A DNA stretch of 64,000 bases, from NCBI GenBank assembly GCA_024232295.1, contig JAAEPT010000129.1:3769-67768 (forward strand). Reading direction: 5' to 3'. The DNA comes from Cytophagales bacterium. GTDB taxonomy: Bacteria; Bacteroidota; Bacteroidia; Cytophagales; JAAEPT01. Shown here piece by piece: positions 1,542 through 54,292 of the stretch. A model generated the notes under the pieces. That model made no database searches. It saw only the letters and a list, made by a program, of their open reading frames with translations, and had not been told where the DNA came from. Numbering within the stretch: position 1 is the first letter of the stretch; each line of letters begins with the position of its first letter. Made by a program: the position numbers and the translations under genes.

Positions 1542-1640
1542 ACGCAAAGTAGGTTTATAATGAAAAGTACAAATTAAGAATTGAAAAAAGAAGTTAAAAG
1601 CCTATCTTACGTAAGATTAAAGAACCTTAAACCCTTTTCT

Positions 1641-3635
1641 ATGAATTTTATCAGAAATATAGTACTCTCTGTGCTTGTGCTCCTACAACTCTCACTAATT
1701 GCACAAACACCAGTTGCTAATTATGAAAACTATCAATGGGAAAAGAATCCCAAACTTCATAAACTTAGTGAAGAAGATAGCAAAAAGTTTGAACTTATCC
1801 TCAAAGAAAAAAGAAGTATTGAGTTTATTGATCAAGATGAATATGAATTTAGGCATAAAATTGTTCGTGTAAACTCGAATCGTGCCATTGAAAATAACAA
1901 CCGAATTTATCTTCCTTTGCGTCAAGGTGATTTATTAAAGTTTGCAAGAGCTCGTGTCATTACACCTAGTGGAAAAGTGCTAGAATTGGATAGTGATGAT
2001 ATCCAGACAGCCCAAGACCCTGAAAGCAAAAGAGTCTATAAGTATTTTGCCCTAAAAGGAATTGAGTTGGGTAGTGAAATTGAGCAAATCACTTATACAA
2101 GATCTTATTCAAACTTGGCTGGAAGCATTGTTTTCTTACAAGATGATACAGAGAAAAGAGATGTAGATTTTGAGTTGATCACTCCCAAACATATTGGCCT
2201 AAAGGTTAAACCAGTCAATGCTCCATCCATGACAATGGATAGTACAAGTATCCCTGAAAAAATAGTATGGAAAGTACACCTAGATAAAGTAGAAAAAGCT
2301 GAAAAAGAAGATTTTGCAGTCTTATTACCAAACCTAGTTCAAATCCATTATAAACAAGATAAATACAGCTTCAATTCTGGAGAATCAAGAATGTTTTTTA
2401 CTTGGCATGAGATTGTAGAAAGTGTATATCTGAGAGTCCACTGGTCAAAAAATCTTCCAAAAAAAGAACGCAAAGCACAGAAAAAAGACAGAAAACGAAT
2501 TAAAAAGTTTTTGAAAGAAGCTCCTTTGAAAACAGCAAAGTCTGAGAAAGAAAAAATTGCCATTGTTGAGCAATTTATCAAAGAGAGAATTCAAGTTGTT
2601 GATGCCTATAATACTGAACTATCAAATATTGAATTCATTTTGACAAATAAAGCAGCAAACTCAGTAGGTATCTCAAAACTTTATATGGGGATTTTTGAGC
2701 AATTAAAAATAAAGGCAAACATTGTATTAACATCCAATCGTGATGAAATCAAATTTGATAAGGATTTTGAAGGTTTTCATCAATTACAAAGCTATTTGAT
2801 TCACTTTCCAAACTCAGACTTATACATTTCTCCAACAGATAATTTCTCTCGTATGCAGCTTATTCCACATAACTGTACAGATAATGGAGCTGTATTTATT
2901 TATGCAGGAAACAATGATGATGCACCAAGTTATGAGTTTAAATACATTGAAGCACTGCCTGCTGAAGCAACAGTAGATGCTTTGAACCTAAAAATCGAAT
3001 TTGATGAAAATGATATTTCAACATTGAACATTGACATGAAGAGAGAGTTGACTGGTTATTATGCAAAAATTTACCAGCCTTATTTTGACTTCTTAGGAGA
3101 AAAACAACTCAAAGAAATCAAAAAATCAATGGTTCAATATATTGGGGATGATATAGAGATTGCAAATAGTAGTTTTGAAAATACAGGTTTGAACAATTTG
3201 ACAGTGAATCCACTCACTGTGAAAGCAACACTTAGCTCTACTAGTCATGTAGAAAAAGCAAAAGATAAATACTTATTCAGAATTGGGGATTTGATAGGGG
3301 CTCAAGCAGAAATGTACCAAGATAAAGAGCGAAAATTCCCTGTAGAAAATGATTTCAATCGTACTTATAATCGTGTGCTTTCTTTCAAAATACCAGAAGG
3401 ATACAAAGTTAACAACTTAGAAGATTTAAAGTTTAATGTAAGCTTAGCAGTAGAGGGTAAAACAAGTGCGATATTTGATTCAAAATATGTGGTGAATGGA
3501 GATGAAGTAACTGTAACAATTACTGAATACTACAAATCAATCACCTACCCAAAAGAATTATTTGAACAATATCGAAAAGTGATTAATGCAGCAGCAGATT
3601 TCAACAAAGTCATTTTGTTTTTAGAGAAAAAATAA
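1641..3635 (+). CDS. DUF3857 / transglutaminase-like fold protein, catalytic triad apparently lost
   Basis: Track ORF 1581..3635; the signal peptide begins at the ATG at 1641 (MNFIRNIVLSVLVLLQLSLIAQ). It shows the DUF3857-type N-terminus and typical C-terminus (FKIPEGYKV, YKSITYPKELF). ANS sits where active homologues have GDC. Confidence 0.8.
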   Translation: MNFIRNIVLSVLVLLQLSLIAQTPVANYENYQWEKNPKLHKLSEEDSKKFELILKEKRSIEFIDQDEYEFRHKIVRVNSNRAIENNNRIYLPLRQGDLLKFARARVITPSGKVLELDSDDIQTAQDPESKRVYKYFALKGIELGSEIEQITYTRSYSNLAGSIVFLQDDTEKRDVDFELITPKHIGLKVKPVNAPSMTMDSTSIPEKIVWKVHLDKVEKAEKEDFAVLLPNLVQIHYKQDKYSFNSGESRMFFTWHEIVESVYLRVHWSKNLPKKERKAQKKDRKRIKKFLKEAPLKTAKSEKEKIAIVEQFIKERIQVVDAYNTELSNIEFILTNKAANSVGISKLYMGIFEQLKIKANIVLTSNRDEIKFDKDFEGFHQLQSYLIHFPNSDLYISPTDNFSRMQLIPHNCTDNGAVFIYAGNNDDAPSYEFKYIEALPAEATVDALNLKIEFDENDISTLNIDMKRELTGYYAKIYQPYFDFLGEKQLKEIKKSMVQYIGDDIEIANSSFENTGLNNLTVNPLTVKATLSSTSHVEKAKDKYLFRIGDLIGAQAEMYQDKERKFPVENDFNRTYNRVLSFKIPEGYKVNNLEDLKFNVSLAVEGKTSAIFDSKYVVNGDEVTVTITEYYKSITYPKELFEQYRKVINAAADFNKVILFLEKK

Positions 3636-3650
3636 GGGGTTACAAATCAG

Positions 3651-3681
3651 AAAAGAGAACTACTTTTAGTTCTCTTTTTTT
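3651..3681. terminator. Bidirectional intrinsic terminator
   Basis: AAAAGAGAACTA-cttt-TAGTTCTCTTTT hairpin with A and T tails, between convergent genes. Confidence 0.85.
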
Positions 3682-3683
3682 GA

Positions 3684-4427
3684 TTATTCTAGAACAATAA
3701 TTTCTTCATCAGATGCTTTTTTCAACAAAGCAATAGTGGTATTTACTTCAAACTTTTTGAACAAGTTCTTTTTGTGATACTTTATCGTTTCTGTACTCAC
3801 AAAAAGCTCATCAGCTATTTTTTTATTACCATAACCCTTTACTAAACACTCCAATACCTCTTTTTCTCGCTCAGACACTGGAGTTTTCAAATCTTTTTCA
3901 ATTCGTTTCTTTAATTCTGTTAAGTCATGTCCTTCTATAAAGAAATCCCAACCAACTTTTTTTGATTTATCAAATTCAGTAATATCACTTAAAAATGAAA
4001 AATTACTGTAAGAATACCCTTTCTCATCTAAATCATAGACACCTGAATGACGCATTATTTTGAGATAAGTCCCATCAGTTTTTCTAATTCGGTAACTAAA
4101 ACGACTAACAAGTTTTCCCAAATTAGGGGTATCAAAACAATAACTCACCACTTCTTTGATCAAAAAAGATAACTTCTCTCTGTCTTCTGGATGTATCAAA
4201 TTTCGAGTAAGGTCTAGAAGAGTAATTTCGTCCTCTTTCCAACCCAAGAGTTTTTCCAAACCTTTGACATGTGAAACAGACTTATTTTTCCAATCTATCA
4301 CATAAAAAGCTTGTTTTTCTAGAAGATTAACGTCATTATCATCCTTCCATTTTGTATAAGTTGACTGATGATCTTGAAATTGAATGGCAGCTTTTTCAAC
4401 AAATTTTTCAAACTCCTCTTGTGTCAT
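3684..4427 (-). CDS. PAS-domain LuxR-family transcriptional regulator (LuxR solo, copy 1)
   Basis: PAS_3-like LIHPED...YRIRKTDGTY and C-terminal LuxR HTH (SEREKEVL...IADELFVSTETIKYHKKNLFKK). The ATG at 4427 overlaps the upstream TGA (TGATG); the track uses TTG at 4430. Confidence 0.9.
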   Translation of the reverse strand: MTQEEFEKFVEKAAIQFQDHQSTYTKWKDDNDVNLLEKQAFYVIDWKNKSVSHVKGLEKLLGWKEDEITLLDLTRNLIHPEDREKLSFLIKEVVSYCFDTPNLGKLVSRFSYRIRKTDGTYLKIMRHSGVYDLDEKGYSYSNFSFLSDITEFDKSKKVGWDFFIEGHDLTELKKRIEKDLKTPVSEREKEVLECLVKGYGNKKIADELFVSTETIKYHKKNLFKKFEVNTTIALLKKASDEEIIVLE

Positions 4428-5203
4428 CAAGCAAGGTCTTTCAGGTACTGAGATAATAAGTTATTGAAATCATTTACATTATCCATTTGAGGAGAATGAC
4501 TACCATCTTTGATAATGTGAATTTTTTGCTTCCACAAAGGAAGGTTAGGTAAGCTTTGGATATAACTCAAATTACACAAAGGGTCTTTCTCTCCAAGAGC
4601 AATGCAAACAGGAATGGTAGTATTTTGAAGTATTGTCACTTCATCAAGCAAATTCCCTAGTCCAACATCTTGTATAAGAGTACTTCTAAAAGCTCCATCT
4701 GTATTCTTGATACTTTCTTCTATTTGTGATAAATCTGTCTGTGACGTATAACTTTGTGCCAAAGAAGTAACTTGTTCATCTGTCAACTCAGGAAGAAAAA
4801 AAGAAGGAATGGCTGGATGTGGTAGAAATGAACTGCCTATATCTGGAGGTGAAGTCAAAGGAGGTACTCCAAAAATTAAAATGCCTACTACATTCTGGAT
4901 TTTGGACAAAGATTGTAATAATAAATGTCCTCCCAATGAATGCCCGACCAAGACAACTTTTGATAAATTCAATTCATTGATTGTGTTTGAAATACTACTT
5001 CTAATGCCATCTAATGTATAAAGCTGTGCATTCCTAATAGAATCTCCATGACCAGGCATATCCATACTTATCAAGCGATAATCTTGAAAAATTTCATCTG
5101 ATATTTGATGAATAAAAGAATTTTTATCACAAGAATTACCATGAACAAATACAATTGAAATATCAGATTCTACTTGGTTGTCAAAAATGCTAAGAGCTGT
5201 CAT
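4427..5203 (-). CDS. Alpha/beta hydrolase, AidH-like (possible AHL lactonase)
   Basis: HGNS oxyanion motif, DMPGHGDS, nucleophile elbow GHSLGGH, GVPP, TDG, acid in GEKDP, catalytic His in GSHSP. Confidence 0.85.
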   Translation of the reverse strand: MTALSIFDNQVESDISIVFVHGNSCDKNSFIHQISDEIFQDYRLISMDMPGHGDSIRNAQLYTLDGIRSSISNTINELNLSKVVLVGHSLGGHLLLQSLSKIQNVVGILIFGVPPLTSPPDIGSSFLPHPAIPSFFLPELTDEQVTSLAQSYTSQTDLSQIEESIKNTDGAFRSTLIQDVGLGNLLDEVTILQNTTIPVCIALGEKDPLCNLSYIQSLPNLPLWKQKIHIIKDGSHSPQMDNVNDFNNLLSQYLKDLA

Positions 5204-5303
5204 TATACCACTAATTAGTTGATGATGATTTTAAGGAAATTAATATAATCAAATTACAGTAAAGATGTGATAAAAATCACTATTTAAATGGGTATAACTA
5301 ATC

Positions 5304-5315
5304 ACTTACGTAAGT
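5304..5315. promoter_or_regulatory. Perfect 12-bp palindrome, candidate operator
   Basis: ACTTACGTAAGT in the divergent intergenic region. Confidence 0.35.
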
Positions 5316-5366
5316 TTTAATTTGTTATCTAAAATAAGTATTCTTTTTTTCATTTTTAATGACAAA

Positions 5367-5384
5367 ACTACCCTTTTGGGTAGT
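5367..5384. promoter_or_regulatory. Inverted repeat, candidate LuxR/NarL-type operator
   Basis: ACTACCC-TTTT-GGGTAGT, 70 bp upstream of the 5455 start codon. Confidence 0.5.
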
Positions 5385-5454
5385 AGTATCTAAATGATTT
5401 ATGTCGTAGTTTTGAGGGCTAAAAAAATAAATTTAAGAGTACTTCATTTGTATC

Positions 5455-7116
5455 ATGAAAACACGTGTATTAACATTCATCTTTTTTCTTTCAACATTTA
5501 CATTATTCTCTCAAACAGGATTTGATGATAAAATCCAAAAAACAGAGAAACAGCTAAAAGAAGCAGTACAAAATCAAAACTATGAAGAGGCTGCTAAACT
5601 AAAACAAGAGTTGGAAGTTTTACAATTGAAACAAGATTCTGTCATTGTGGCTCAGCAAAAGCTTCAAAAACAAAAAATCTCAATTCAGGAAATAGACATT
5701 GCCTTGGATGGTATTTCGCAAGAAATAGACAAAACACAACAAAAAATGCAGAGAGCAGCTCAAAATCAAGATTATCAAGCTGCAGCTCAATTCAAAACAG
5801 AAATTACTACCCTGACTGCTCAACAAGATTCTTTACAAGAAATCAAACAAAAGCAATTAGCCATCGCACAAAAAGAAAAAGAAGAATTTGAAGCAAAAAG
5901 AAATGAGTTGGCTTCAAAAATTTCAAACAAACAACAAGAAATGGATATGGCTGCTCAGAATCAAGACTATCAAGCAGCAGCAAAATACAAAACAGAACTA
6001 GAGGCTCTCACTGCTCAACAAGATTCTTTGTTACTTACACAACCTAATATTGTTGTAAATACACAACCTCAACCAAATACAAATACTGTAGCAAATAATA
6101 CCAGTCCAACAAATGGTACAGAAGCTACTGAAGAAAGAGTAGGAACAGAAGACCCTACAATTGTTAATAACACAAATACTCCTGTAATCATTAACGAAGC
6201 GACTAGTGAACCAATTGATTCAGCAAAATACAAACTATTAAGAATTCCAGATCAAAGAATGGTTGATAATGTTGGTTTCCAAATCAATGATTTGAATGAA
6301 AAAATCTCAATCGCTTATCAAGCTGAAAACTATGATCGTGTTGCAGCCTTGCAACAAGAAAAAGTATTGAAAGAAAAGATTAGAACTTCTATGCTGAATA
6401 AGGACTATAGTGAATTAGCTAACCTCCAAAAACAATATACTCAAGCAAAAAACAACTCTAAAAATTTCCCAGAAACTCAACGTGAGATCGAAATAAAAAG
6501 AGATATCAAAGAAGCAGAGATTGCTGCTGCAGAATTAGAAGCTCAGAACAACCAACCATCTACAGTAACAACAGACTCTGAGCCTGAACCAACAAATAAT
6601 ACAACAAATACAAATAACAATACTACTTATAATACTAATAACAATACAACAAACAATAACACTACTTATAATACCAACACCAATAACAACACAACAACAA
6701 ATAGTTATCAAAACAATACCAATCAAGACCCTAACAAAAAAATTGCTGAAGGAGGAATTGATATTATCACAAGAACGAATAATGATGCTACTGATGTAGG
6801 ATTGAAAATATGGGGAGGTAACAAAGGATTTTATTCTGCTATAGAATTTGGAGTATCAGAATACAATGAAGATGGGTACTTTTTCTATGATTTAGGATAT
6901 GCCTTATGTTCAAAAGATGTGTATTGGATGATTGGAACAAGACCTTACCTTAGATCTTTTTTATTTGATGATGGAGATGCAACAGCAACGTTCATTACAC
7001 AAGTTGGAGTTTACCATAAATATGTAGGGTTTTCTACAATGCTAGAAGTTAGTGCTGAAGGTGATGTTGGCTTTGATATTGGTCTTTCTGTACGATTTGG
7101 AAATACATTTAAATAA
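5455..7116 (+). CDS. Secreted coiled-coil protein with ~5 UvrB/UvrC(UVR)-like motifs and a probable small C-terminal outer-membrane beta-barrel
   Basis: Signal peptide; repeats LKEAVQNQNYEEAAKLKQEL, MQRAAQNQDYQAAAQFKTEI, MDMAAQNQDYQAAAKYKTEL and two weaker copies; Asn/Thr linkers; last ~125 aa show alternating hydrophobic strands ending GLSVRFGNTFK. Confidence 0.75.
   Translation: MKTRVLTFIFFLSTFTLFSQTGFDDKIQKTEKQLKEAVQNQNYEEAAKLKQELEVLQLKQDSVIVAQQKLQKQKISIQEIDIALDGISQEIDKTQQKMQRAAQNQDYQAAAQFKTEITTLTAQQDSLQEIKQKQLAIAQKEKEEFEAKRNELASKISNKQQEMDMAAQNQDYQAAAKYKTELEALTAQQDSLLLTQPNIVVNTQPQPNTNTVANNTSPTNGTEATEERVGTEDPTIVNNTNTPVIINEATSEPIDSAKYKLLRIPDQRMVDNVGFQINDLNEKISIAYQAENYDRVAALQQEKVLKEKIRTSMLNKDYSELANLQKQYTQAKNNSKNFPETQREIEIKRDIKEAEIAAAELEAQNNQPSTVTTDSEPEPTNNTTNTNNNTTYNTNNNTTNNNTTYNTNTNNNTTTNSYQNNTNQDPNKKIAEGGIDIITRTNNDATDVGLKIWGGNKGFYSAIEFGVSEYNEDGYFFYDLGYALCSKDVYWMIGTRPYLRSFLFDDGDATATFITQVGVYHKYVGFSTMLEVSAEGDVGFDIGLSVRFGNTFK
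6595..6722 (+). repeat. Asn/Thr low-complexity coding repeat (TNNNTTYN-like units)
   Basis: AAT/AAC/ACA-rich imperfect tandem repeats in frame within the 5455 CDS. Confidence 0.8.
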
Positions 7117-7124
7117 AAAATAAG

Positions 7125-10100
7125 ATGCGACTTATACAGATTAAACTTGCAATTATCTTTTTGTTTTTATTCACTTGTTCTTTTGCTCAAAGTGGAAAAA
7201 CTGAAAGAACTTCACTTCCTTTTAAAAACACAAAGCAAGCAGGGTATGGAGGTAAAATAGGTATTAAATATACTTTTCGTAGAACCCCATGTTGCATTGA
7301 AGCAGCAGTTCAATGTGATTATTCAAGAAGTTCTTTTGATTACTATTATTATAAGGGGAAAAAGTACTACCCTAAAGATTTAGGGCTTCAGAAATTTGAT
7401 TTTAACCCTAATAGAATTGATGTTTCAGCTAAACTGATGAGGAAAGGTAAACCTCCTAAATATCTCAAAAAGCTAACATTTACAGGAATTACAGATCGTA
7501 CATTTGCATCGCAAGTTAGTATCAATGATATTTTGTTACCAGCAGAAAAGAAACATCCAGTATCTTTTCTCAACAACTTTTTCCTAAAGGATTTTAAAAT
7601 TGTAAGCTATGGTTATCAATCTGATTACAAAATAGAACAACTCATTGAAAAAAAGCTAAAAAGTGGAAGTACTGGATCAAATAGTAACAATAATCAAGGA
7701 GGAAATAGTAATGGTAATAATAGAAATAACCATAGTAATAACTCAAGTACCACTGGGAATAAAAATGGCAAAACAAGTTGTAAGGCTTCTTTAACAATGA
7801 AGGAATCTTATAACTATTGTAAAAAATTCAGATACTATGCTAAGCCACATCCTGGTGCTTTTGCAGGGGGTGGGTCCAATGGTCCCCGTCATGTAGGTGT
7901 CAAAAAATTCACACTTTACTACAAGAAAACAACTACTATATATTGGGAAGAAAAGCAAATAAATGCTCGTGGGCTTGTCATGGATCGTGAAGGAAAACTA
8001 TATAATCTAGAGCCTTGTACAAAATATGACTACAAAGTAAAAATTGAATGTGAGGATGGTTCTTCTGTCACTACTCTTCCCAAAACTTTTACTACAAAAT
8101 GTTCTCCTGGACGATACATTCATAGCTATGAGGGGTATCGTAATGGATATGCAATCCTAAGAAGTAGAAGTAATGGTGACCAATGTTCTTATAATAAAAC
8201 AGAGACTTTGATTGTAAATGTCTACACCAAAAACGGATCTTATAATGAGACTATCTCCTTCAAACCAGGAGAAAAAGTAAAAATACCTATCTCTGTAAAT
8301 AGTACTTATTACTATAGAACAAAAGTAAAATTTGCTAATGGTAAGGTCTCTAAATACTCAAAGAAAAAAGGATTTTTTCAAGTAACTAGAGCAACTTCTG
8401 CTGCCAAAGTAAATAAGAATACTAAAAATAAAAATACAGCAAATAGTAATAACAACAATAACAGTAGTACGGGGTCTAAAAACCAGAGAGTATCCAATAG
8501 TAATTCGTCAAATAGTAGTAATAGCAGTAGTACTTCTACCTCTACTAGTACAAGCACTACCTCTCAGAAAAACAAAAATGCAAGAACTTCTTCTTCTACC
8601 TCTACTAGTAGTACAAGTAGTAGCTCCTCCTCTCCTTCTTATAGTTCTGGAAGTGGATCAGAACTAGAAACCACAACAATTGCAGTAGTTGTAATTGCTG
8701 CAGCAGCAGTAGGTACTTATGTAGCCCATTATTATTGGGGGAAAATGCTTTATACAGGAGAACCTCTCCCAGAAGGAAGTGAATATTCTGAACCTGGACC
8801 ATTATTTAGTGTATCGGGAGGACAATCACTAACCTTTATCAGTACACCTAATAATGAGCAATTGAATGGATTAAACTTTGATGTTAAATTAGAATACTCT
8901 CCTATTTATACTCCTTTTTTTGCCACAACTGTCAATGCAAATGGAGTAGCAGGTACTGGTTTATTATTTGGGAATGTACATGCAGGCTTTTCACTTGGTG
9001 CAAAAGTAATGGGAGGTATTCCAAATGTGAAAGTGTTTGGAGAATATGAACAAGGAGCTAGAGCAACAGCTCGTATTTATTATTCAAGTCCTATGTCTTA
9101 TGGCTTCCAAAGATATACTGGAGGATTACGCTTTTCATTTGGAGAAAATAATCATACACATATAGAACTTGGAGCAATGCTCGAAATTCAAGATGACCGA
9201 ACACAGTACCTAAATGATAATTACTTCATTGATAAAGCAGATTTAGGAGGAATGCTTTCTGTCTCAGTAGATAATGCAGGAGAATTCTTTGTTCAAGGCT
9301 TTCCTCGTTATTATACCAACTTAACTCAAGAAGAACGAGGTGAGAATTCACCAATGACGTACTTTGTAAATATTGGCTATAGAAGACGTTGGGACTACTT
9401 TCACAAGGGTTCTGAAAGAACAACAAAAGAGTTTAAACATCTACAAAACAAGAAGTTTATCTTCGGTATAGGACCTACAACAAGGTATCGCCTTTCTACC
9501 TTAAGAGAGCAAGAGAATGTATTTTCTGTTTCACCAGGACGTTCAATAAGTTTACTGTACATGGAAGGAGATATTCGATTAAACAAATATGTTCGTACAC
9601 AAGTTGGATTAGGGTTGATGCATGCAGGTTCTAATACAGGGCGTGTTGTTGTGAGAGATGTAGCAGAAGATCAAACTTTATTTAGTTATACTGACACTTA
9701 CTATAGTGGTAGCATATTTGACCCAAATAATGGAACTGAATACACAGAAAATTATACAATTGGAAAAGGAAAAGGAGATTCCTTCTCGATGAGTCATCAT
9801 TCAATTGCTGATATTCCAATTTCTGCTTCTGTAGGACTTCCTCTAAAAAACAAAACAATCTGGGCTAGAGTAGGTACAGGTATTAAAATTGGATTGAATA
9901 CAGTGACTAGTTTAGGTAGTATTGGAACACTTGCTGATTTAGAAGACGATTATGAATATACAGGAATATCAACCAATATTCATTATAACTTTGTAGGGTT
10001 CGGAATTGATGTTCCAACAAAAAGACATGGTTATAGAGCTTCTCTATCTTATGAGTGGGAAACAAACTCTGTACTTGATAGTTTTGCAACACAAAGTAGT

Positions 10101-10133
10101 GGATGGAATTTATCTTATTTTTGGATATTTTAA
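7125..10133 (+). CDS. Large secreted mosaic protein: FN3-like domains, Ser/Asn linkers, hydrophobic helix, one or two C-terminal beta-barrel-like regions
   Basis: Signal peptide; FN3-type LEPCTKYDYKVKIEC and STYYYRTKV; long S/T/N tracts; IAVVVIAAAAVGTYVAHYYW; amphipathic strands ending LSYFWIF with terminal Phe. Confidence 0.7.
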   Translation: MRLIQIKLAIIFLFLFTCSFAQSGKTERTSLPFKNTKQAGYGGKIGIKYTFRRTPCCIEAAVQCDYSRSSFDYYYYKGKKYYPKDLGLQKFDFNPNRIDVSAKLMRKGKPPKYLKKLTFTGITDRTFASQVSINDILLPAEKKHPVSFLNNFFLKDFKIVSYGYQSDYKIEQLIEKKLKSGSTGSNSNNNQGGNSNGNNRNNHSNNSSTTGNKNGKTSCKASLTMKESYNYCKKFRYYAKPHPGAFAGGGSNGPRHVGVKKFTLYYKKTTTIYWEEKQINARGLVMDREGKLYNLEPCTKYDYKVKIECEDGSSVTTLPKTFTTKCSPGRYIHSYEGYRNGYAILRSRSNGDQCSYNKTETLIVNVYTKNGSYNETISFKPGEKVKIPISVNSTYYYRTKVKFANGKVSKYSKKKGFFQVTRATSAAKVNKNTKNKNTANSNNNNNSSTGSKNQRVSNSNSSNSSNSSSTSTSTSTSTTSQKNKNARTSSSTSTSSTSSSSSSPSYSSGSGSELETTTIAVVVIAAAAVGTYVAHYYWGKMLYTGEPLPEGSEYSEPGPLFSVSGGQSLTFISTPNNEQLNGLNFDVKLEYSPIYTPFFATTVNANGVAGTGLLFGNVHAGFSLGAKVMGGIPNVKVFGEYEQGARATARIYYSSPMSYGFQRYTGGLRFSFGENNHTHIELGAMLEIQDDRTQYLNDNYFIDKADLGGMLSVSVDNAGEFFVQGFPRYYTNLTQEERGENSPMTYFVNIGYRRRWDYFHKGSERTTKEFKHLQNKKFIFGIGPTTRYRLSTLREQENVFSVSPGRSISLLYMEGDIRLNKYVRTQVGLGLMHAGSNTGRVVVRDVAEDQTLFSYTDTYYSGSIFDPNNGTEYTENYTIGKGKGDSFSMSHHSIADIPISASVGLPLKNKTIWARVGTGIKIGLNTVTSLGSIGTLADLEDDYEYTGISTNIHYNFVGFGIDVPTKRHGYRASLSYEWETNSVLDSFATQSSGWNLSYFWIF
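8460..8660 (+). repeat. Ser/Thr/Asn low-complexity coding tract
   Basis: SSNSSSTSTSTSTSTTS...TSSSTSTSSTSSSSSS; AGT/ACT/TCT-rich DNA. Confidence 0.75.
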
Positions 10134-10145
10134 ACAGAATAAATA

Positions 10146-11612
10146 ATGAAATACTTACCAATTTTCGCACTCATATTTCTTGTTTTAGGCTGTAAAAAAT
10201 ATGAAATAGAACCTGAACAATTAAAAATCAAAAGAATTACAGCAAATAATAATGATGATGATTATTCTTCTAGTAATAGTAATTCTGTGGTAGATCTAGA
10301 GTGGACAGCAGCAAGTAAAGTTAGTAAATTAAAATATACTACAAGCACCTCATTTCCATATCCGCAAAGTAATATTATTTACAATGAGAACAATGAAGCT
10401 ACTAGTATGCTTTATTATCCATCAACTGGAGGTACTCCAGTTGTTTATTCAATTTCTGTCGAAGACAATATCTACAGTATTGAAAGTGAAAATGAAAACT
10501 ATTCCAGCTATTACTATTCTATTAATGAAGAAGGTCAAATCTCTGGATTTATTGATAATTCATTGACACTGGTAAGATTTGAATATGAAACAGATGGAGT
10601 TATCATCAGTGTTTATGAAGATGACAGGTTTAAAACAAAATACAAAGCTTATTACACAACTAGAGAAATTCAAAACCCAATTAATCAACTACCTGTATGG
10701 TTGTATTATCAAGTAATTGCAGGTTCATTACCTAGTGGATCGTTATACAAACCTGGTTATCAACAATATAACATACATGATTTTTGGTATTTAATACTAG
10801 AAAAAACCGTTGATAAAGTTGAATACTACAAAGGAGGAGAATCATCTGATGATGTTGATTTTACAATTGGCTACACTATGGATATAGACTTCAATGATTA
10901 TTGTAGAAGTCTTGATTATTTTGATTACTCTACTTATCCTGAAAATATTTCCTTTAAATTTGATATGGTCAATCCTCAAACCTCAAATATTTCTAGCACA
11001 GATACAACTGAAGTTGGAGATGTGATTGTGGAAGAAGAGGAAGAAGAAGAGACAAATAATGATGGAGTAAGAGGGAAAGTAAGTGACGTAGAAGGAAACA
11101 GTTATGAAACTGTTCAAATTGGTGAGCAAATTTGGATGGCAGAAAACTTAAGGACGACAAAGTATAATAATGGACAATCCATCGAAATAGAAACAGATAA
11201 TTCTGATTGGAATCAAAGATCACTTAATAATGATTTGATGTGTTTCTATGATAACAATACAAGTAAACATGCCTTATACAATTTTAGAGTAGCAACCAAT
11301 GGCAATGTATGTCCTACAGGATGGAGTGTTCCCACAAAAAGTGATTGGGAAACTTTTAATAATTATACTGATGAAAAGAATAATGATTTCAACTTTAATA
11401 GTGTATTAGAAGAATCAAGATCTGGAGCTGGCTTTTTCTATAGCTATAATGCATCTCCTCAATACAAAAGTGAATATTGGTGGAGTCGTACAGGAAATGG
11501 TTCAAATACAGCTTATGCCAATAGACATTGGTCTCTGAATGGTCCTAACTTTGATTTAGGAAGTGGTTATAGTAGAGGTGATGGAAATCCTATCCGATGT
11601 ATTAAAGACTAA
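10146..11612 (+). CDS. Lipoprotein with C-terminal FISUMP (Fibrobacter succinogenes major paralogous) domain
   Basis: Lipobox LVLGC; FISUMP signature SDVEGNSYETVQIGEQIWMAENLRTTKY, ALYNF, CPTGWSVPTKSDW, terminal PIRCIKD. Confidence 0.9.
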   Translation: MKYLPIFALIFLVLGCKKYEIEPEQLKIKRITANNNDDDYSSSNSNSVVDLEWTAASKVSKLKYTTSTSFPYPQSNIIYNENNEATSMLYYPSTGGTPVVYSISVEDNIYSIESENENYSSYYYSINEEGQISGFIDNSLTLVRFEYETDGVIISVYEDDRFKTKYKAYYTTREIQNPINQLPVWLYYQVIAGSLPSGSLYKPGYQQYNIHDFWYLILEKTVDKVEYYKGGESSDDVDFTIGYTMDIDFNDYCRSLDYFDYSTYPENISFKFDMVNPQTSNISSTDTTEVGDVIVEEEEEEETNNDGVRGKVSDVEGNSYETVQIGEQIWMAENLRTTKYNNGQSIEIETDNSDWNQRSLNNDLMCFYDNNTSKHALYNFRVATNGNVCPTGWSVPTKSDWETFNNYTDEKNNDFNFNSVLEESRSGAGFFYSYNASPQYKSEYWWSRTGNGSNTAYANRHWSLNGPNFDLGSGYSRGDGNPIRCIKD

Positions 11613-49565: not shown

Positions 49566-49823
49566 ATGAAAGAGAAGAAGGGATACATACTTATTTGCAA
49601 AGCAGGTAAATGCAAAAAAAAGGGAAGTAAAGATTTGATAAAGTCTGCTCAAAAATTCGTCAAGAAAAAGGAGCTAGAAGAATGTGTTTTTGTAAAAGAA
49701 TCAAAATGCTTAAATCAATGTAAAAAAGCTCCTGTTGTTTGTTTAAGTTCACCCAAAACTTGGCTTTACAAACAAGACAAAAAAAGCTTAAAAAACAGCC
49801 TTAAAGATAATTTTTGTTCATGA
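49566..49823 (+). CDS. Thioredoxin-like [2Fe-2S] ferredoxin domain protein
   Basis: ICKAGKC (Cx4C) and CLNQCKKAP (Cx3C). Confidence 0.85.
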   Translation: MKEKKGYILICKAGKCKKKGSKDLIKSAQKFVKKKELEECVFVKESKCLNQCKKAPVVCLSSPKTWLYKQDKKSLKNSLKDNFCS

Positions 49824-50449
49824 AAATAAATCGATTAGAAAAAGAATGGTTTGAAGTAGGGAAACAATATACTGATGATATTGACTTCTTGAAAAATGAA
49901 TGGTTTAATATCATAGCCTTATATAATGAAGAACATAGAGCTTATCATAACATTCATCATATCTTAGCCCTTTACCAACATACACAAAGTATTAAAGACC
50001 AAATTAATAATTACCCAGTATTCTTCTATACACTTATTTTTCATGATGTAATTTATAGTACAAAGCAGAAAAATAATGAAGTAAAAAGTGCTAAATATGC
50101 AGAACAATTCCTTCAAAAGATTCAGTTTCCCAATACTGACAGAGTATTTGCAATTATTCTACATACAGCTGAGCATCATATCAGAAAAGAAAATGAAGAC
50201 TTTGACACAAAAGCATTCTTGGATATGGATTTGGCAATTTTGGGAAGTGACTTAGAAAACTATCAACAATACACCCAACAAATCAGAGAAGAATGGAAAC
50301 ATATTCCTTCCTTACTTTATAAAATAGGAAGAAAAAAAGTACTAAAATCCTTTCTTAATAGTAGTGAAATTTATCGCTTACCACTCTTTCAAGAAAAGTA
50401 TGAAAAAGTGGCAAGACAAAATATCTTGGAAGAAATTGAAAGATTGTAA
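49814..50449 (+). CDS. Predicted metal-dependent HD phosphohydrolase (COG4339-like)
   Basis: YNEEHRAYHNIHH, FHDVIY, NEVKSA, FLDMDLAILG, IREEW, ARQNI. Confidence 0.9.
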   Translation: MFMKINRLEKEWFEVGKQYTDDIDFLKNEWFNIIALYNEEHRAYHNIHHILALYQHTQSIKDQINNYPVFFYTLIFHDVIYSTKQKNNEVKSAKYAEQFLQKIQFPNTDRVFAIILHTAEHHIRKENEDFDTKAFLDMDLAILGSDLENYQQYTQQIREEWKHIPSLLYKIGRKKVLKSFLNSSEIYRLPLFQEKYEKVARQNILEEIERL

Positions 50450-50460
50450 GGAATAAAATT

Positions 50461-51213
50461 ATGACAAATGATGAATTTGAAAAAGAAATAGAAGCCCTAT
50501 CTAATTCCATAAAAAGTAATCATATTTTATTCAAGAAATGGGAAAACTATGATTCCATAATACTTTTAGAAAAACAGGCATTTTATACAGTAAATTGGTT
50601 GACAAAGAAACTTGATTTTGCAAAAGGTTTTGAAAAACTGTTGGGATACAATAGTCAAGAATTATCATTATTAGATATAAGTCACAATCTTATACATCCA
50701 GAAGACCAAGCCAAAATAGCACTGGTTATTAAAGAAACAGTACATTACTGCATAAACAATCCTATACCTAAAGAAGGAATGCAACTTCGCATTAGTTATC
50801 GAATGAGGAAGGCAAATGGATCGTATATAAAAGTGATGAGACATACAGGTTTGTATGAAAAAAATGATAAAGATCAGTTAACTACTAACTATTCTTTTTT
50901 GAATGATATCTCCAACTTTGATACTTCTACAAAAATGAGATGGGAGATGTTTTTAGAGGGCAAGGATCAAGATATGGAGAAATTAAGAAACAAAATACAA
51001 GAGATCTTGGAAACTCCCCTTAGTGTAAGAGAAAAAGAAGTCTTGAGTTATATTGCACAAGAATACACAAATCAAGAAATCTCAAACAAATTATTCATCA
51101 GTGTAGAGACAGTAAAATACCACAAAAAGAATCTATTTAAGAAATTTGAAGTATCATCTGTCTTAGGTTTACTCAAAAAAGCATCAGAAGAAGGTATTAT
51201 TGAACTATATTAA
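50461..51213 (+). CDS. PAS-domain LuxR-family regulator (copy 2)
   Basis: LIHPED, YRMRKANGSY, LuxR HTH SVREKEVL...SVETVKYHKKNLFKK; colinear with 3684..4427. Confidence 0.9.
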   Translation: MTNDEFEKEIEALSNSIKSNHILFKKWENYDSIILLEKQAFYTVNWLTKKLDFAKGFEKLLGYNSQELSLLDISHNLIHPEDQAKIALVIKETVHYCINNPIPKEGMQLRISYRMRKANGSYIKVMRHTGLYEKNDKDQLTTNYSFLNDISNFDTSTKMRWEMFLEGKDQDMEKLRNKIQEILETPLSVREKEVLSYIAQEYTNQEISNKLFISVETVKYHKKNLFKKFEVSSVLGLLKKASEEGIIELY

Positions 51214-52268: not shown

Positions 52269-52369
52269 ATATTTTTGTTTATTAAAAATCAAAACGGCTA
52301 TTTACAAATAGTCTGCCAAAACTTTTTTTACTAACTTTGATTATCATAAAATTTTATATCAATCACAGC

Positions 52370-54292
52370 ATGAAAAGAATATTATTTTATCTAACTGCTT
52401 TATTTCTTGTTAGCTCAACAGCTTTTGCTCAACAAAGCTTACTAGCAAAACTCAAAGAAAAGTATCCAAATAGCAACGAAATCACTTTAAACAACAATCA
52501 CACTATTACAATTGATGTGGATGAAACTGGACTTGTTATCTATGATGATATTTATGAAGAAAGAATGTTGCTGAAATACACTGGAGGATTGAAGAAAAAA
52601 ACGATTCAATACAATTCTTTTTCAAGTATTGAAGAAATCAAGGCATATACTTTAGCAATGAATAAAAAAGGAAAGTACAAAAAAATAAAAGTGAAAAAGT
52701 TTCAGAACAAGGACATATTGGATGATATGATTTTTCATGATGATACCAAAGAATTATCCTTCTACTTTCCAGAGCCTGCAGAGGGTGCAAAAACAGTGAT
52801 TGCTTATAAACAGCATGAAAAAAATCCTCGCTTCCTCAACTCTTTTTTTGTAGGTGACTTTGTTCCAACACTTGAAACAAAATTCACAATCAAAGTCAAT
52901 CCAGCAGTAGATATTGCTTTTCAATACTTCAATCTTGAAAAAAAAGATATTACATTAAATAAAACAGAAGATAAAGAATGGATTACTTATGAATGGACAC
53001 AATCAAGCATTCCTGCTGCACCCTATGAAGCAAGTGCTCCCAATCCTCGTTATTATCTAAAACACATCATACCTTATATAAAAAGCTTTAAAAATAAAGA
53101 AGGAGAAACTGTTAACTTGCTTAGAGATGTAGGTGATTTGTATGCTTGGTATGCTGATCTATTAGAACAAATGCCAAAAAAAGATACCAAACAATTACAA
53201 GCAATCACAGACTCATTGGTTCAAGACAAAACAACAGAAATGGAAAAAGTGAAAGCTGTTTTCTACTGGGTTCAAAATAATATTAAGTATGTCGCTTTTG
53301 AAGAAGGAATGGGTGGATTTATTCCTCGTAATGCTGTGGATGTTTGTGAAAAGCGATATGGTGATTGCAAAGACATGGCAAATCTAACTTCTAGGATGTT
53401 ACAGATGGCAAATATTCCTTGTTTTCATACATGGATTGGGTCAGATGATATTCCCTATACTTATGATTTACCTACTCCTGCTGTGGATAATCACATGATT
53501 GCAACTTATATTGATTCTCTAGGAAAACATCATTTTTTGGATGCCACTGGTCAATATTATAGTGCCTCTCTTCCTACTCATTTCATTCAAGGACAAGAAG
53601 CTCTTATCGGTGTTGCAAAAGATAGTTTTATTGTATCAAAAGTACCTGTGATGCCTGCTAATAGAACACTTTATGAAGACAATTTAGAAATACAGATTAT
53701 TGACAATAAAGTTGTTGGTATAGGAAAAGCAGCATTTACGGGTTACAAAAAGACAGCTTTAGTTCACCGCCTAAATGGAGAAAGCAATCAGGAGAAAAAG
53801 GATTTTTTTATTTCATATTTAAGTAAAGGGAATAATACATTTGAAATCAAGCAATTGAATGATAAAAATATTCAAGATCGAGACTTGCCTTATTTGGTTA
53901 ATTATGATTTTGAATTGGAAAATTATGTTCGTCAAAATGGTGATGAATTATACATTAATCTGAACTTGGATAAACCTTTCAAGAAAAAATTCATTAAAAA
54001 AGATAGGAAATTACCTATTCAAAGAAGCTATCAACAAGGTTATGTTTTCAATGTTAATTTAGAAATACCGAAGGGTTATACAGTAGATTATCTGCCCAAA
54101 GACAATGAAGGCAAAAATAAACTTATGAACTACAAAAGCACATATACTCAAAAAGAAGGAAAAATCGAACTAAACTTGGCAATAGAAAGCACACATCTTT
54201 TGCTTTCTCCACAGGATTTTGATACTTGGAACAAAGAACTTAGGAAACTAGTAGAGACTTATAGTGAAGTAGTTGTTTTGAAAAAACAATAA
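52370..54292 (+). CDS. DUF3857 / transglutaminase-like cysteine protease with intact triad
   Basis: Signal peptide from MKRILF; NNIKYVAFEEGMGGFIP; GDCKD (Cys), NHMI (His), LDAT (Asp). Confidence 0.9.
   Translation: MKRILFYLTALFLVSSTAFAQQSLLAKLKEKYPNSNEITLNNNHTITIDVDETGLVIYDDIYEERMLLKYTGGLKKKTIQYNSFSSIEEIKAYTLAMNKKGKYKKIKVKKFQNKDILDDMIFHDDTKELSFYFPEPAEGAKTVIAYKQHEKNPRFLNSFFVGDFVPTLETKFTIKVNPAVDIAFQYFNLEKKDITLNKTEDKEWITYEWTQSSIPAAPYEASAPNPRYYLKHIIPYIKSFKNKEGETVNLLRDVGDLYAWYADLLEQMPKKDTKQLQAITDSLVQDKTTEMEKVKAVFYWVQNNIKYVAFEEGMGGFIPRNAVDVCEKRYGDCKDMANLTSRMLQMANIPCFHTWIGSDDIPYTYDLPTPAVDNHMIATYIDSLGKHHFLDATGQYYSASLPTHFIQGQEALIGVAKDSFIVSKVPVMPANRTLYEDNLEIQIIDNKVVGIGKAAFTGYKKTALVHRLNGESNQEKKDFFISYLSKGNNTFEIKQLNDKNIQDRDLPYLVNYDFELENYVRQNGDELYINLNLDKPFKKKFIKKDRKLPIQRSYQQGYVFNVNLEIPKGYTVDYLPKDNEGKNKLMNYKSTYTQKEGKIELNLAIESTHLLLSPQDFDTWNKELRKLVETYSEVVVLKKQ

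Follow-up and report, generated by a model that had tools for sequence, protein, structure and literature searches.

A conserved pairing of an AidH-family hydrolase with a PAS-LuxR regulator in Bacteroidota and allied phyla as a probable chemical-signal sensing unit

The alpha/beta-hydrolase AidH from Ochrobactrum sp. T63 is a proven broad-range AHL lactonase, in which Tyr160 hydrogen-bonds the lactone ring oxygen and the product hydroxyl, and replacement of this residue strongly cuts the activity (PMC3532132). The AHL lactonases described from marine Bacteroidota, MomL, Aii20J and MzmL, all belong to the metallo-beta-lactamase class, and for MzmL a signal peptide is predicted (PMC11112094). 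The hydrolase RsbQ forms an adjacent-gene sensing module with an N-terminal PAS domain in Bacillus subtilis and 45 relatives, which involves physical contact and has varied outputs, listed as PPM phosphatase, histidine kinase and GGDEF, with no LuxR HTH among them (PMC3183031). An N-terminal PAS domain and a C-terminal LuxR-type HTH are combined within one cytoplasmic protein in VqmA, the DPO receptor of Vibrio cholerae, and in the uncharacterised protein 3CLO of Bacteroides thetaiotaomicron. VqmA is not known to act with a partner hydrolase. In the PAS4-LuxR solos of Photorhabdus, a PAS domain reportedly replaces the AHL-binding domain, and a cognate LuxI is said to be missing. Finally, hydrolase-fold enzymes serve as receptors or together with receptors, passing the signal on by protein contact, in the plant D14/KAI2 systems, where the partners are F-box/SMXL proteins, and in Pseudomonas PqsE-RhlR (8DQ0), where PqsE has a metallo-beta-lactamase fold and the partner is a canonical LuxR.

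The locus analysed here combines features of several of these systems. It lies in a window of 64,000 nucleotides of contig JAAEPT010000129.1 from a Cytophagales bacterium, and all positions below refer to this window, which holds the following features.

3649..3680, both strands: bidirectional intrinsic-terminator hairpin with a 12-14-bp stem and flanking T-runs on both strands
3684..4427, minus strand: PAS_3 + GerE (LuxR-type HTH) one-component regulator, 247 aa from the ATG at 4427; GerE 62.9 bits, PAS_3 23.6 bits; 3CLO profile match 4e-25; Foldseek matches 3CLO, VqmA and EL222
4425..4429, minus strand: TGATG stop/start overlap, read from the sequence and the translations
4427..5203, minus strand: AidH-family alpha/beta-hydrolase gene (product P0001), 258 aa; Abhydrolase_6/1; AidH E 5e-29; AF2 pLDDT 97; Foldseek TM 0.93 to AidH
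5204..5454, no strand assigned: divergent intergenic region between the hydrolase operon and an exported-protein operon, with an 18-bp hairpin/palindrome at 5367-5384
50461..51213, plus strand: paralogous PAS-LuxR regulator, 48% identical to the regulator at 3684..4427 and its closest relative, 46 kb from the hydrolase

Both open reading frames of the pair are present, at 4427-5203 and 3684-4430 on the minus strand, and the TTG at 4430 is merely the earliest start taken by the ORF finder, the regulator starting with the ATG at 4427. The TGA of the hydrolase (4429-4427) and this ATG (4427-4425) have base 4427 in common, giving TGATG within the minus-strand junction ...CTT GCT TGA TGA CAC AA, which confirms the hydrolase-regulator overlap claimed in an earlier note on this DNA. 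The hairpin downstream ends both this operon and a convergent DUF3857 gene. In the upstream intergenic region no promoter was located and no conserved operator was found, and Rfam, which was searched for riboswitches and other RNAs, gave no match of any weight in the hydrolase-regulator region. The palindrome upstream of the hydrolase is perfect (ACTACCCTTTTGGGTAGT) and has exactly one other copy in the genome, at C33:89712, upstream of the gene for a protein with CBM9 and a T9SS tail. At other loci, G/C-core palindromes near the cassettes are flanked by A- and T-runs and are equally common where PAS-LuxR is missing (0.162 vs 0.164 per kb); these are therefore ordinary terminators, and ACTACCCTTTTGGGTAGT, which itself looks like a hairpin of the terminator type, is unsupported as an operator of the regulator.

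The kinship of P0001 with AidH (PDB 4G5X, 4G8B, 4G9E; PMC3532132) is clear. All motifs listed in the earlier note are present in the noted order (VHGNS 20-24, DMPGHGDS 48-55, GHSLGGH 87-93, GVPP 112-115, TDG 168-170 and LWKQKIHII...GSHSP 223-238) and each pairs with its AidH counterpart when the two proteins are aligned by phmmer. AidH is the top PDB sequence match, at an E-value of 5e-29 with the next match at 2e-10, and in Foldseek the P0001 model matches AidH with a TMq of 0.92-0.93 and an rmsd of 1.8 A, all other matches being at or below 0.81. In reverse, the best match of AidH in the source genome is P0001, and AidH nests within the tree of P0001 homologues. The claimed AidH homology thus holds by E-value, fold, reciprocal match and tree placement, and P0001 does not group with BioH or with RsbQ (1WOM), which reaches an E-value of only 2e-7. 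The two proteins share the family, the core, a five-helix cap, a Ser-His-acid triad, the HGNS and G-x-S-L-G-G-H motifs and a hydrophobic tunnel, and metal-independent chemistry is expected for P0001. The predicted triad is Ser89-His236-Asp207, with HGNS as oxyanion motif, and the corresponding residues are S102 (S89), H248 (H236), E219 (D207), N33 (N23) and L103 (L90) of AidH. The triad serine and histidine are invariant among 85 family sequences, Asn23, His93 and Phe126 are conserved, and the tunnel residues of P0001 are conservatively hydrophobic relative to AidH. P0001 lacks a signal peptide and is a cytoplasmic enzyme.

What does not carry over from AidH is the evidence for its substrate. 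P0001 and AidH are only about 25% identical, and in the tree AidH joins L089 from Rhizobiaceae (branch value 99), whereas P0001 falls into another clade, rich in Bacteroidota (96), so that, judged from sequence, P0001 is a distant paralogue and not an orthologue of AidH. The position of Tyr160 is occupied by Leu148 in P0001, is never tyrosine in the 84 other family members, where it is L/F/W/V/M/I, and is valine even in L089, the sister of AidH. In addition, the position of Trp101 of AidH is histidine in 83 of 85 sequences, P0001 included, Glu219 is replaced by aspartate, and the family-invariant Glu188 is glutamine in AidH. Because Tyr160 is replaced throughout the family, an AHL specificity of P0001 is unsupported, and the same holds, given the low identity and the position outside the AidH subclade, for the designation as a quorum-quenching lactonase in the earlier note.

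The regulator is a protein of about 250 aa with an N-terminal PAS fold and a C-terminal GerE/LuxR HTH. Its PAS_3 score of 23.6 bits is slightly below the Pfam cut-off of 25.6, but the fold is confirmed by the AF2 model (pLDDT 93.7) and its Foldseek matches to PAS domains, and the best match in both sequence and fold is 3CLO. The regulator is only 15-20% identical to VqmA and 3CLO, and nothing points to DPO as ligand. The autoinducer-binding domain (PF03472) gave no match at E-values up to 0.1, PAS_3 and GerE being the only domains, which bears out the proposal that a PAS domain stands in place of the canonical ligand domain. This is also the likeness to the Photorhabdus solos, from which the regulator differs in PAS subfamily and in phylum. 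The LuxI profile (PF00765) found no match in the 95%-complete source genome, but control genomes were equally silent. At the end of the PAS domain lies a DIT-type motif, SDIT at 147-150; the hydrolase-linked regulators of related loci likewise bear D-I-T/S, and D148 is nearly invariant. An assignment of the domain to the RsbP-PAS class had to be rejected, since that class lacks the DIT motif (PMC3183031).

Related hydrolase loci were gathered from an alignment of eight sequences, and in 39 of the 83 homologue loci (37 distinct) a PAS-LuxR homologue adjoins the hydrolase. These loci belong to Bacteroidota, Ignavibacteriota and Balneolota and include the nearest relative, P0050; L089, the nearest relative of AidH among the fetched loci, differs in that no regulator adjoins it, while P0001 is locked to its PAS-LuxR partner. 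With H for the hydrolase and R for the regulator, the gene orders are H>R, H>R>R, H>R>R>R, R>H, R>H>R and convergent. The regulators often occur in two or three tandem copies, many 4-nt overlaps are seen, and 16-19 of the 32 same-strand junctions between hydrolase and regulator in the related loci have an overlap or a gap of at most 5 nt. In five loci the two genes are convergent, an arrangement in which co-transcription is impossible. Conserved transporter or further catabolic or pathway genes were not seen beside the hydrolase in the homologue loci. With about 37 distinct loci conserving the pair, the functional link between hydrolase and regulator is far stronger than the author of the earlier note could know. 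Our literature search found no description of this pairing in Bacteroidota; the conserved combination of hydrolase and PAS-LuxR regulator is what is new here.

The linked regulators form a clade of their own (SH-aLRT 96), which was found only in hydrolase-bearing genomes, although these regulators were sampled via the hydrolase loci and the comparison carries this ascertainment bias. The only two unlinked members of the clade come from the two hydrolase-bearing genomes of the sample, the paralogue at 50461..51213 belongs to the clade, and in 16 relatives that lack the hydrolase the regulators that match best fall outside it. Among 61 relatives the hydrolase is patchy, being found in two, whereas about 20 have members of the wider PAS-LuxR family, and therefore PAS-LuxR proteins do not in general need a hydrolase.

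In other phyla, the hydrolase has other neighbours, namely tandem XRE regulators, Pkinase/AAA_16 STAND proteins, AAA_16-GAF-HisKA_3 proteins, histidine kinases, response regulators (HD-GYP, sigma-54) and a dCache cyclase, and signal-transduction proteins are strongly enriched among its neighbours across phyla. In two Halobacteriovorax-like sequences, which share 82% identity over 536 aa, the hydrolase is fused to an XRE regulator, with GHSLGGH, the acid and the histidine retained, and in sister genomes of the fusion carriers the two genes are separate and overlapping. The fusion belongs to the XRE branch and not to the PAS-LuxR branch; it lends indirect support to a possible physical interaction between hydrolase and PAS domain. 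A sensor domain common to the partners was considered and rejected, as the C-terminal domain of the XRE proteins is not PAS-like (hhalign probability 3%).

Because the pair recurs across Bacteroidota and allies, it is probably a so far undescribed chemical-signal sensing unit, rather than a proven case of quorum quenching. As its mechanism we tentatively favour a two-part sensor, located in the cytoplasm, whose ligand would be a small hydrophobic lactone or ester, in parallel to RsbQ-RsbP, and would give this reading a probability of about 0.42. The hydrolase, with its intact triad, hydrophobic acyl tunnel and AidH-shaped cap, would bind and cleave the compound, and the regulator would be made in fixed proportion to it through translational coupling. 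The regulator would then receive the result, either as the acid or alcohol product in its PAS domain or by direct contact with the enzyme, and would alter transcription via its HTH; the targets may be the neighbouring exported or T9SS-secreted proteins. Perception and consumption of the signal would thereby be one act, as in Bacillus RsbQ-RsbP and plant D14/KAI2. The homology, the fold and catalytic residues, the conserved adjacency, the hydrolase-tied regulator clade, the exchange of partners between phyla and the fusion are observed, while the class of ligand, the way in which information flows, a contact between the proteins and the genes that respond are inferred in this scheme. The likeness to RsbQ-RsbP consists in a hydrolase gene directly beside a gene with an N-terminal PAS domain, here in 37 distinct loci, in a module that is tied to different outputs by lineage, and in a triad-bearing hydrolase that presumably supplies the signal. 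The differences are that the hydrolase is of the AidH and not of the RsbQ type, that the PAS domain is a PAS_3 with DIT, in contrast to the RsbP class with its conserved F-alpha helix, that the output is a LuxR HTH, that the phyla are Bacteroidota, Ignavibacteriota and Balneolota, and that the other partners of the hydrolase are not PAS proteins. With D14/KAI2 there is only a distant fold similarity (Foldseek TM 0.75-0.78).

The main rival, and the other of two live mechanisms, is that the PAS-LuxR protein binds an ester or lactone, foreign or self-made, on its own and induces its own operon, and that the hydrolase destroys the signal for turnover, reset or interference and has no part in perception. 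It would fit the activity of AidH, the closest characterised relative (PMC3532132), the direct binding of signals in the PAS domain by PAS-LuxR proteins such as VqmA, and the full ligand-type domains of the regulators, which are PAS here and GAF or others in other phyla. The PAS domain here is moreover an ordinary PAS_3 with DIT that could bind a ligand by itself, as VqmA does, the PAS-LuxR family is wider than the hydrolase, the fusion lies in the XRE branch, and the unrelated sensor domains of the partners equally fit an ordinary recruitment of local regulators, all of which count against the two-part sensor. However, signal destruction by the hydrolase does not easily account for the conserved fusion with XRE or for such heavy signalling partners as STAND kinases, hybrid kinases and a cyclase, and it leaves unexplained why there are two or three regulators per hydrolase and why five loci are convergent. 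We regard this mechanism as possible but rather doubtful. The diversity of partners, the hydrolase-tied regulator clade and the conserved fusion favour the hydrolase as part of the sensor.

Many alpha/beta hydrolases show some lactonase activity, and P0001 might, like AidH, open the homoserine-lactone ring of acyl-HSLs from neighbouring Proteobacteria, with the regulator sensing AHLs. Fold and cap, triad geometry, oxyanion residues and the hydrophobic tunnel all agree with this, but the low identity outside the AidH subclade, the exchanges at the positions of Tyr160, Trp101 and Glu188, the regulator without AHL-binding domain, and the fact that the known AHL lactonases of marine Bacteroidota belong to another enzyme class (PMC11112094) make it improbable. 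Still less can be said for an ordinary metabolic enzyme of the esterase/lipase type beside a local transcription factor, where adjacency would reflect operon-level control of a detoxifying or catabolic step and no signalling. The homologues do have generic public names ('alpha/beta hydrolase', 'pimeloyl-ACP methyl ester carboxylesterase') and every NCBIfam match of P0001 is far below the family cut-off; yet the lack of conserved transporter or pathway genes alongside, the enrichment of signal transduction among the neighbours across phyla, the recurrence of one specific regulator clade and the patchy distribution speak against it, and we think that this reading is very unlikely.

The two-part sensor could also be a special case of a wider scheme, which we offer as a speculation that may well not hold. 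AidH-family hydrolases would then be a portable enzyme-based input module, which together with the dedicated PAS-LuxR clade of Bacteroidota, Ignavibacteriota and Balneolota would form a hydrolysis-dependent receptor for a diffusible ester or lactone, and which elsewhere would be wired to XRE regulators, sometimes by fusion, to STAND kinases and to two-component systems. Under this scheme bacteria would have a counterpart to D14/KAI2 signalling of plants, and the receptor for cell-cell or host signals that is missing in Bacteroidota would have a candidate.

Chemical communication in Bacteroidota is poorly understood, and AHL-like activities have been reported in this phylum without LuxI/LuxR genes. 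The hydrolase/PAS-LuxR cassette provides a concrete and testable receptor candidate, and its culturable carriers include Algibacter luteus CGMCC 1.12213, Zobellia amurskyensis KMM 3526, Flagellimonas algicola AsT0115 and an Arenibacter strain. The two-part sensor, if true, would carry the RsbQ-PAS concept, in which a hydrolase assists the sensor, over to a second family of hydrolases and to outputs that bind DNA. AidH, a quorum-quenching tool and the one characterised member, sits in a family that is mostly wired to signal-transduction proteins, and therefore its natural role may lie in perceiving or turning over a signal instead of in interference.

The main new result of this analysis is the conserved pairing of an AidH-like alpha/beta hydrolase (P0001) with a PAS-LuxR regulator (P0002), of which literature searches found no account. 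In the window's genome (~33% G+C, 2.9 Mb, 162 contigs, 95% complete), which the relatives retrieved would place in or close to Flavobacteriales, both genes lie in one operon that is closed by a hairpin:

4427-5203, minus strand: AidH-like hydrolase P0001, an ORF of 258 aa
3684-4430, minus strand: regulator ORF of 248 aa, with its biological start at the ATG at 4427
3649-3680, T-runs on both strands: hairpin closing the hydrolase-regulator operon, stem of 12-14 bp

On the minus strand the junction reads GCT TGA TGA CAC, and the stop codon of the hydrolase shares one base with the start codon of the regulator, which bears out the TGATG overlap described in the earlier note.

The hydrolase family comprises 298 clusters (50% identity, E <= 1e-30) among 1.84 billion representatives; homologues are at most 42% identical to P0001, and the distribution is patchy, with 2 of 61 related genomes carrying the gene. 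All four of the closest homologues whose contigs were examined adjoin one or two PAS_3-GerE genes. For a broader comparison, 83 loci were used, many of them from MAGs and 80 obtained by scanning 185,579 species genomes, and regulators were detected with an iterated profile of the N-terminal 178 residues. A regulator homologue directly adjoins the hydrolase in 39 of these loci (37 distinct), which include some from Flavobacteriaceae (Algibacter, Zobellia, Maribacter, Arenibacter, Aquimarina, Flagellimonas, Pricia) and also from Weeksellaceae, Hymenobacter, Bacteroidales, Ignavibacteriota and Balneolaceae. With H for hydrolase and R for regulator, the gene orders are H>R (13 loci), H>R>R (9), H>R>R>R (2), R>H (5), R>H>R (3) and convergent H> <R (5), and 16-19 of the 32 same-strand junctions show an overlap or a gap of at most 5 nt.

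P0001 matches only generic alpha/beta-hydrolase families in Pfam, and every match to NCBIfam equivalogs (BioH, MenH, PcaD and others) is far under the cut-off. When all PDB sequences were searched, the AHL lactonase AidH (4G5X) was an outlier as best match (E 5e-29, residues 16-256), followed by a second match at 2e-10 and by RsbQ at 2e-7. The AlphaFold2 model, for which 44 homologues were used, has very high confidence (pLDDT 97), and the top eight Foldseek matches are AidH chains (TMq 0.92-0.93, rmsd 1.8 A), with the remaining hydrolases, including KAI2 and D14, at TM 0.69-0.81. Conversely, AidH residues 26-268 retrieve the P0001 gene as top match in the window's own genome (8e-34; runner-up 2e-12). 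In a maximum likelihood tree of 85 family members and three own-genome outgroups, AidH falls within the family, in a mostly proteobacterial group beside a Rhizobiaceae MAG protein (support 99), and P0001 in a Bacteroidota-rich clade (96); this tree and that of the regulators were made with a quick method, with SH-aLRT as sole support measure. The comparison and phylogeny proposed in the earlier note thus identify AidH as the closest solved relative, and by sequence and fold the name "AidH-like" is correct at the family level, but AidH is distant (~25% identity, other clade) and not an orthologue. P0001 has no signal peptide and is therefore predicted to be cytoplasmic.

The motifs listed in the earlier note were all found in P0001, each aligned to its AidH counterpart. 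Judged by the residues that the structural study of AidH (PMC3532132) singles out, P0001 keeps Ser102, His248, Asn33, Leu103, His106 and Phe138 and has Asp in place of Glu219, and conservative exchanges keep the tunnel hydrophobic (M77L, M144I, M188L, F189I, F192V, F221L). P0001 very probably works as a serine hydrolase, on a substrate that carries a hydrophobic chain. In AidH, Tyr160 holds both the oxygen of the lactone ring and the hydroxyl of the product, and activity drops strongly without it (PMC3532132). This residue is Leu148 in P0001, Val in the sister protein of AidH and Tyr in none of the 84 other sequences; the Trp101 position is His in 83 of 85 sequences, and a family-invariant Glu188 is Gln in AidH. 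As the head-group pocket is thus unlike that of AidH, AHL specificity cannot be deduced from the relationship, and the assignment of P0001 as an AidH-type AHL lactonase fails on both Tyr160 and orthology.

P0002 combines a GerE/LuxR HTH (62.9 bits) with a PAS_3 domain slightly under the Pfam cut-off (23.6 bits) that ends in the widespread D-I-T/S motif. It contains no AHL-binding domain, and the presence of PAS instead, as noted earlier, is confirmed by its AlphaFold2 model (pLDDT 93.7). A search for LuxI (PF00765) gave no match in the window's genome, and none in the control genomes either. A profile of 44 regulator homologues matches 3CLO, an uncharacterised PAS-LuxR protein from Bacteroides thetaiotaomicron, at 4e-25; 3CLO also leads the structure matches, before VqmA (the DPO quorum-sensing receptor of Vibrio) and EL222 (LOV-HTH) and then many isolated PAS domains, and the architecture is of the VqmA/3CLO type.

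The wider PAS-LuxR family occurs in ~20 of 61 relatives. A tree was built from 43 regulators linked to the hydrolase and 20 that are not; 31 of the linked set group in one clade (96) with only two unlinked members, namely the window's paralogue at 50461-51213, which is sister to P0002 (100; 48% identical), and a protein of genome G006. G006 and the window's genome are exactly the two hydrolase-bearing genomes sampled, and the best-matching regulators of 16 hydrolase-free relatives fall outside. In this tree the linked regulators, though sampled via hydrolase loci, are a dedicated clade, with clade-specific conserved PAS positions (Gln39, Tyr42, Glu67, Lys116, Lys123, Arg126, Ser141, Ser144, Trp160). 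Since the paralogue belongs to a clade tied to hydrolase genomes, P0001 may serve it too, like the tandem copies in other loci. Its gene (plus strand) begins 11 nt after a 211-aa ORF (49814-50449) that has His/Asp-rich motifs (HNIHHILAL, IFHDVIY) and no Pfam or PDB match. Each PAS-LuxR gene of the window lies near a DUF3857 protein (1581-3635; 52337-54292, the latter also with a transglutaminase core), and a hydrolase-free PAS-LuxR gene of a same-family genome (L109) adjoins a transglutaminase-like gene, which may be a recurrent association. At L095:1354-2954 (genome G044), another regulator, sister to the Hymenobacter linked regulator, is convergent to an unrelated YbfF-like Abhydrolase_1 hydrolase, possibly a case of non-orthologous partner replacement.

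Where no PAS-LuxR gene adjoins the hydrolase (44 loci), other signalling proteins are enriched among the 78 immediate neighbours scanned with Pfam: HATPase_c (7), HTH_3 (6), AAA_16 (5), Response_reg (5), SAM methyltransferase (4), GerE (3), GAF_2 (3) and Sigma54_activat (2). No recurrent transporter or second catabolic enzyme was found among the hydrolase neighbours. Eight Bdellovibrionota loci have tandem pairs of ~280-aa XRE regulators, SAR324, Spirochaetota and Catalimonadaceae have Pkinase-AAA_16 or AAA_16-GAF-HisKA_3 giants, and Magnetococcales an HD-GYP response regulator, a dCache cyclase and a PAS hybrid kinase. Hydrolase and first XRE regulator (HTH_3) form one reading frame in the Halobacteriovorax MAG L074 (3956-5581), and likewise in the independent Halobacteriovorax-like database protein P0189; in sister genomes the genes are separate with a 4-nt overlap. 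Both fusions have GHSLGGH, acid and His intact, and as they are 82% identical across 536 residues, an assembly error is unlikely. The ~200-aa C-terminal domain of the XRE partners, which has no Pfam match or PAS similarity, may be ligand-binding. About half of these partners (e.g. L034, L043:1747-2649, L092:2857-3774) carry C-x-H/F-x-G-x3-C near the C-terminus, which is absent from the first copies of L075 and L080 (L080:4822-5667). A Thalassomonas sp. (L071:3884-5746) encodes a 620-aa fusion of the hydrolase with a zinc alcohol dehydrogenase. In several Bdellovibrionota and other loci (L064:4754-5551, L050:4763-5605, L073:4803-5612, minus), a UbiE/COQ5-type SAM methyltransferase is convergent to the hydrolase, which by analogy to BioC/BioH or PhcB logic hints at a methyl-ester substrate.

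Genes beside the cassette are suggestive candidates for regulator targets. In other loci those that come after it often encode T9SS-tail proteins (12 loci), GBD_T9SS_assoc (7), DUF5723 proteins (6) or TPR histidine kinases (7), and in the window there is:

5455-11612, divergent from the cassette: three-gene operon for an exported UVR-repeat protein, a 1002-aa protein and a Fib_succ_major lipoprotein

No operator of the hydrolase-regulator pair was found. A perfect 18-bp palindrome, ACTACCCTTTTGGGTAGT, was considered for this role and behaves as a terminator hairpin. The 2.9-Mb genome has just two copies, both with the same AAAA flank, one in the divergent intergenic region (5367-5384) and one between sugar-transferase and CBM9 plus T9SS-tail genes (C33:89712-89729). 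It probably is such a hairpin, though a run of 22 identical bases is more than this reading explains.

For the mechanism we favour, at a probability of about 0.42, a bipartite sensor, in which the hydrolase would bind and cleave a signal and the result would be handed to the regulator as product or conformational state. In its favour are the hydrolase-XRE fusion, a hydrolase that stays constant while its partner types change, the regulator clade dedicated to it, the several regulators per hydrolase and the absence of pathway genes. In RsbQ-RsbP, the hydrolase is encoded immediately upstream of an N-terminal PAS domain, which is joined to a variety of outputs and makes contact with the hydrolase (PMC3183031). 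The pair would work similarly, yet it is no member of the RsbQ-PAS module, as hydrolase family, PAS class and output all differ. That the regulator itself binds the signal and the enzyme clears it appears somewhat unlikely, although the known AidH activity, VqmA-type direct sensing, an own ligand-type domain in every partner and the PAS-LuxR proteins that function without hydrolase outside the linked clade speak for it. This and the bipartite sensor can both hold, since receptors of the D14 type likewise break down their ligand. AHL-specific quorum quenching is improbable for a non-orthologue with Leu148 and a different head-group pocket, and a plain metabolic esterase is less probable still. 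The hydrolase and PAS-LuxR pair is a testable candidate signal receptor of Bacteroidota and casts a new light on what AidH-family enzymes may do in nature.
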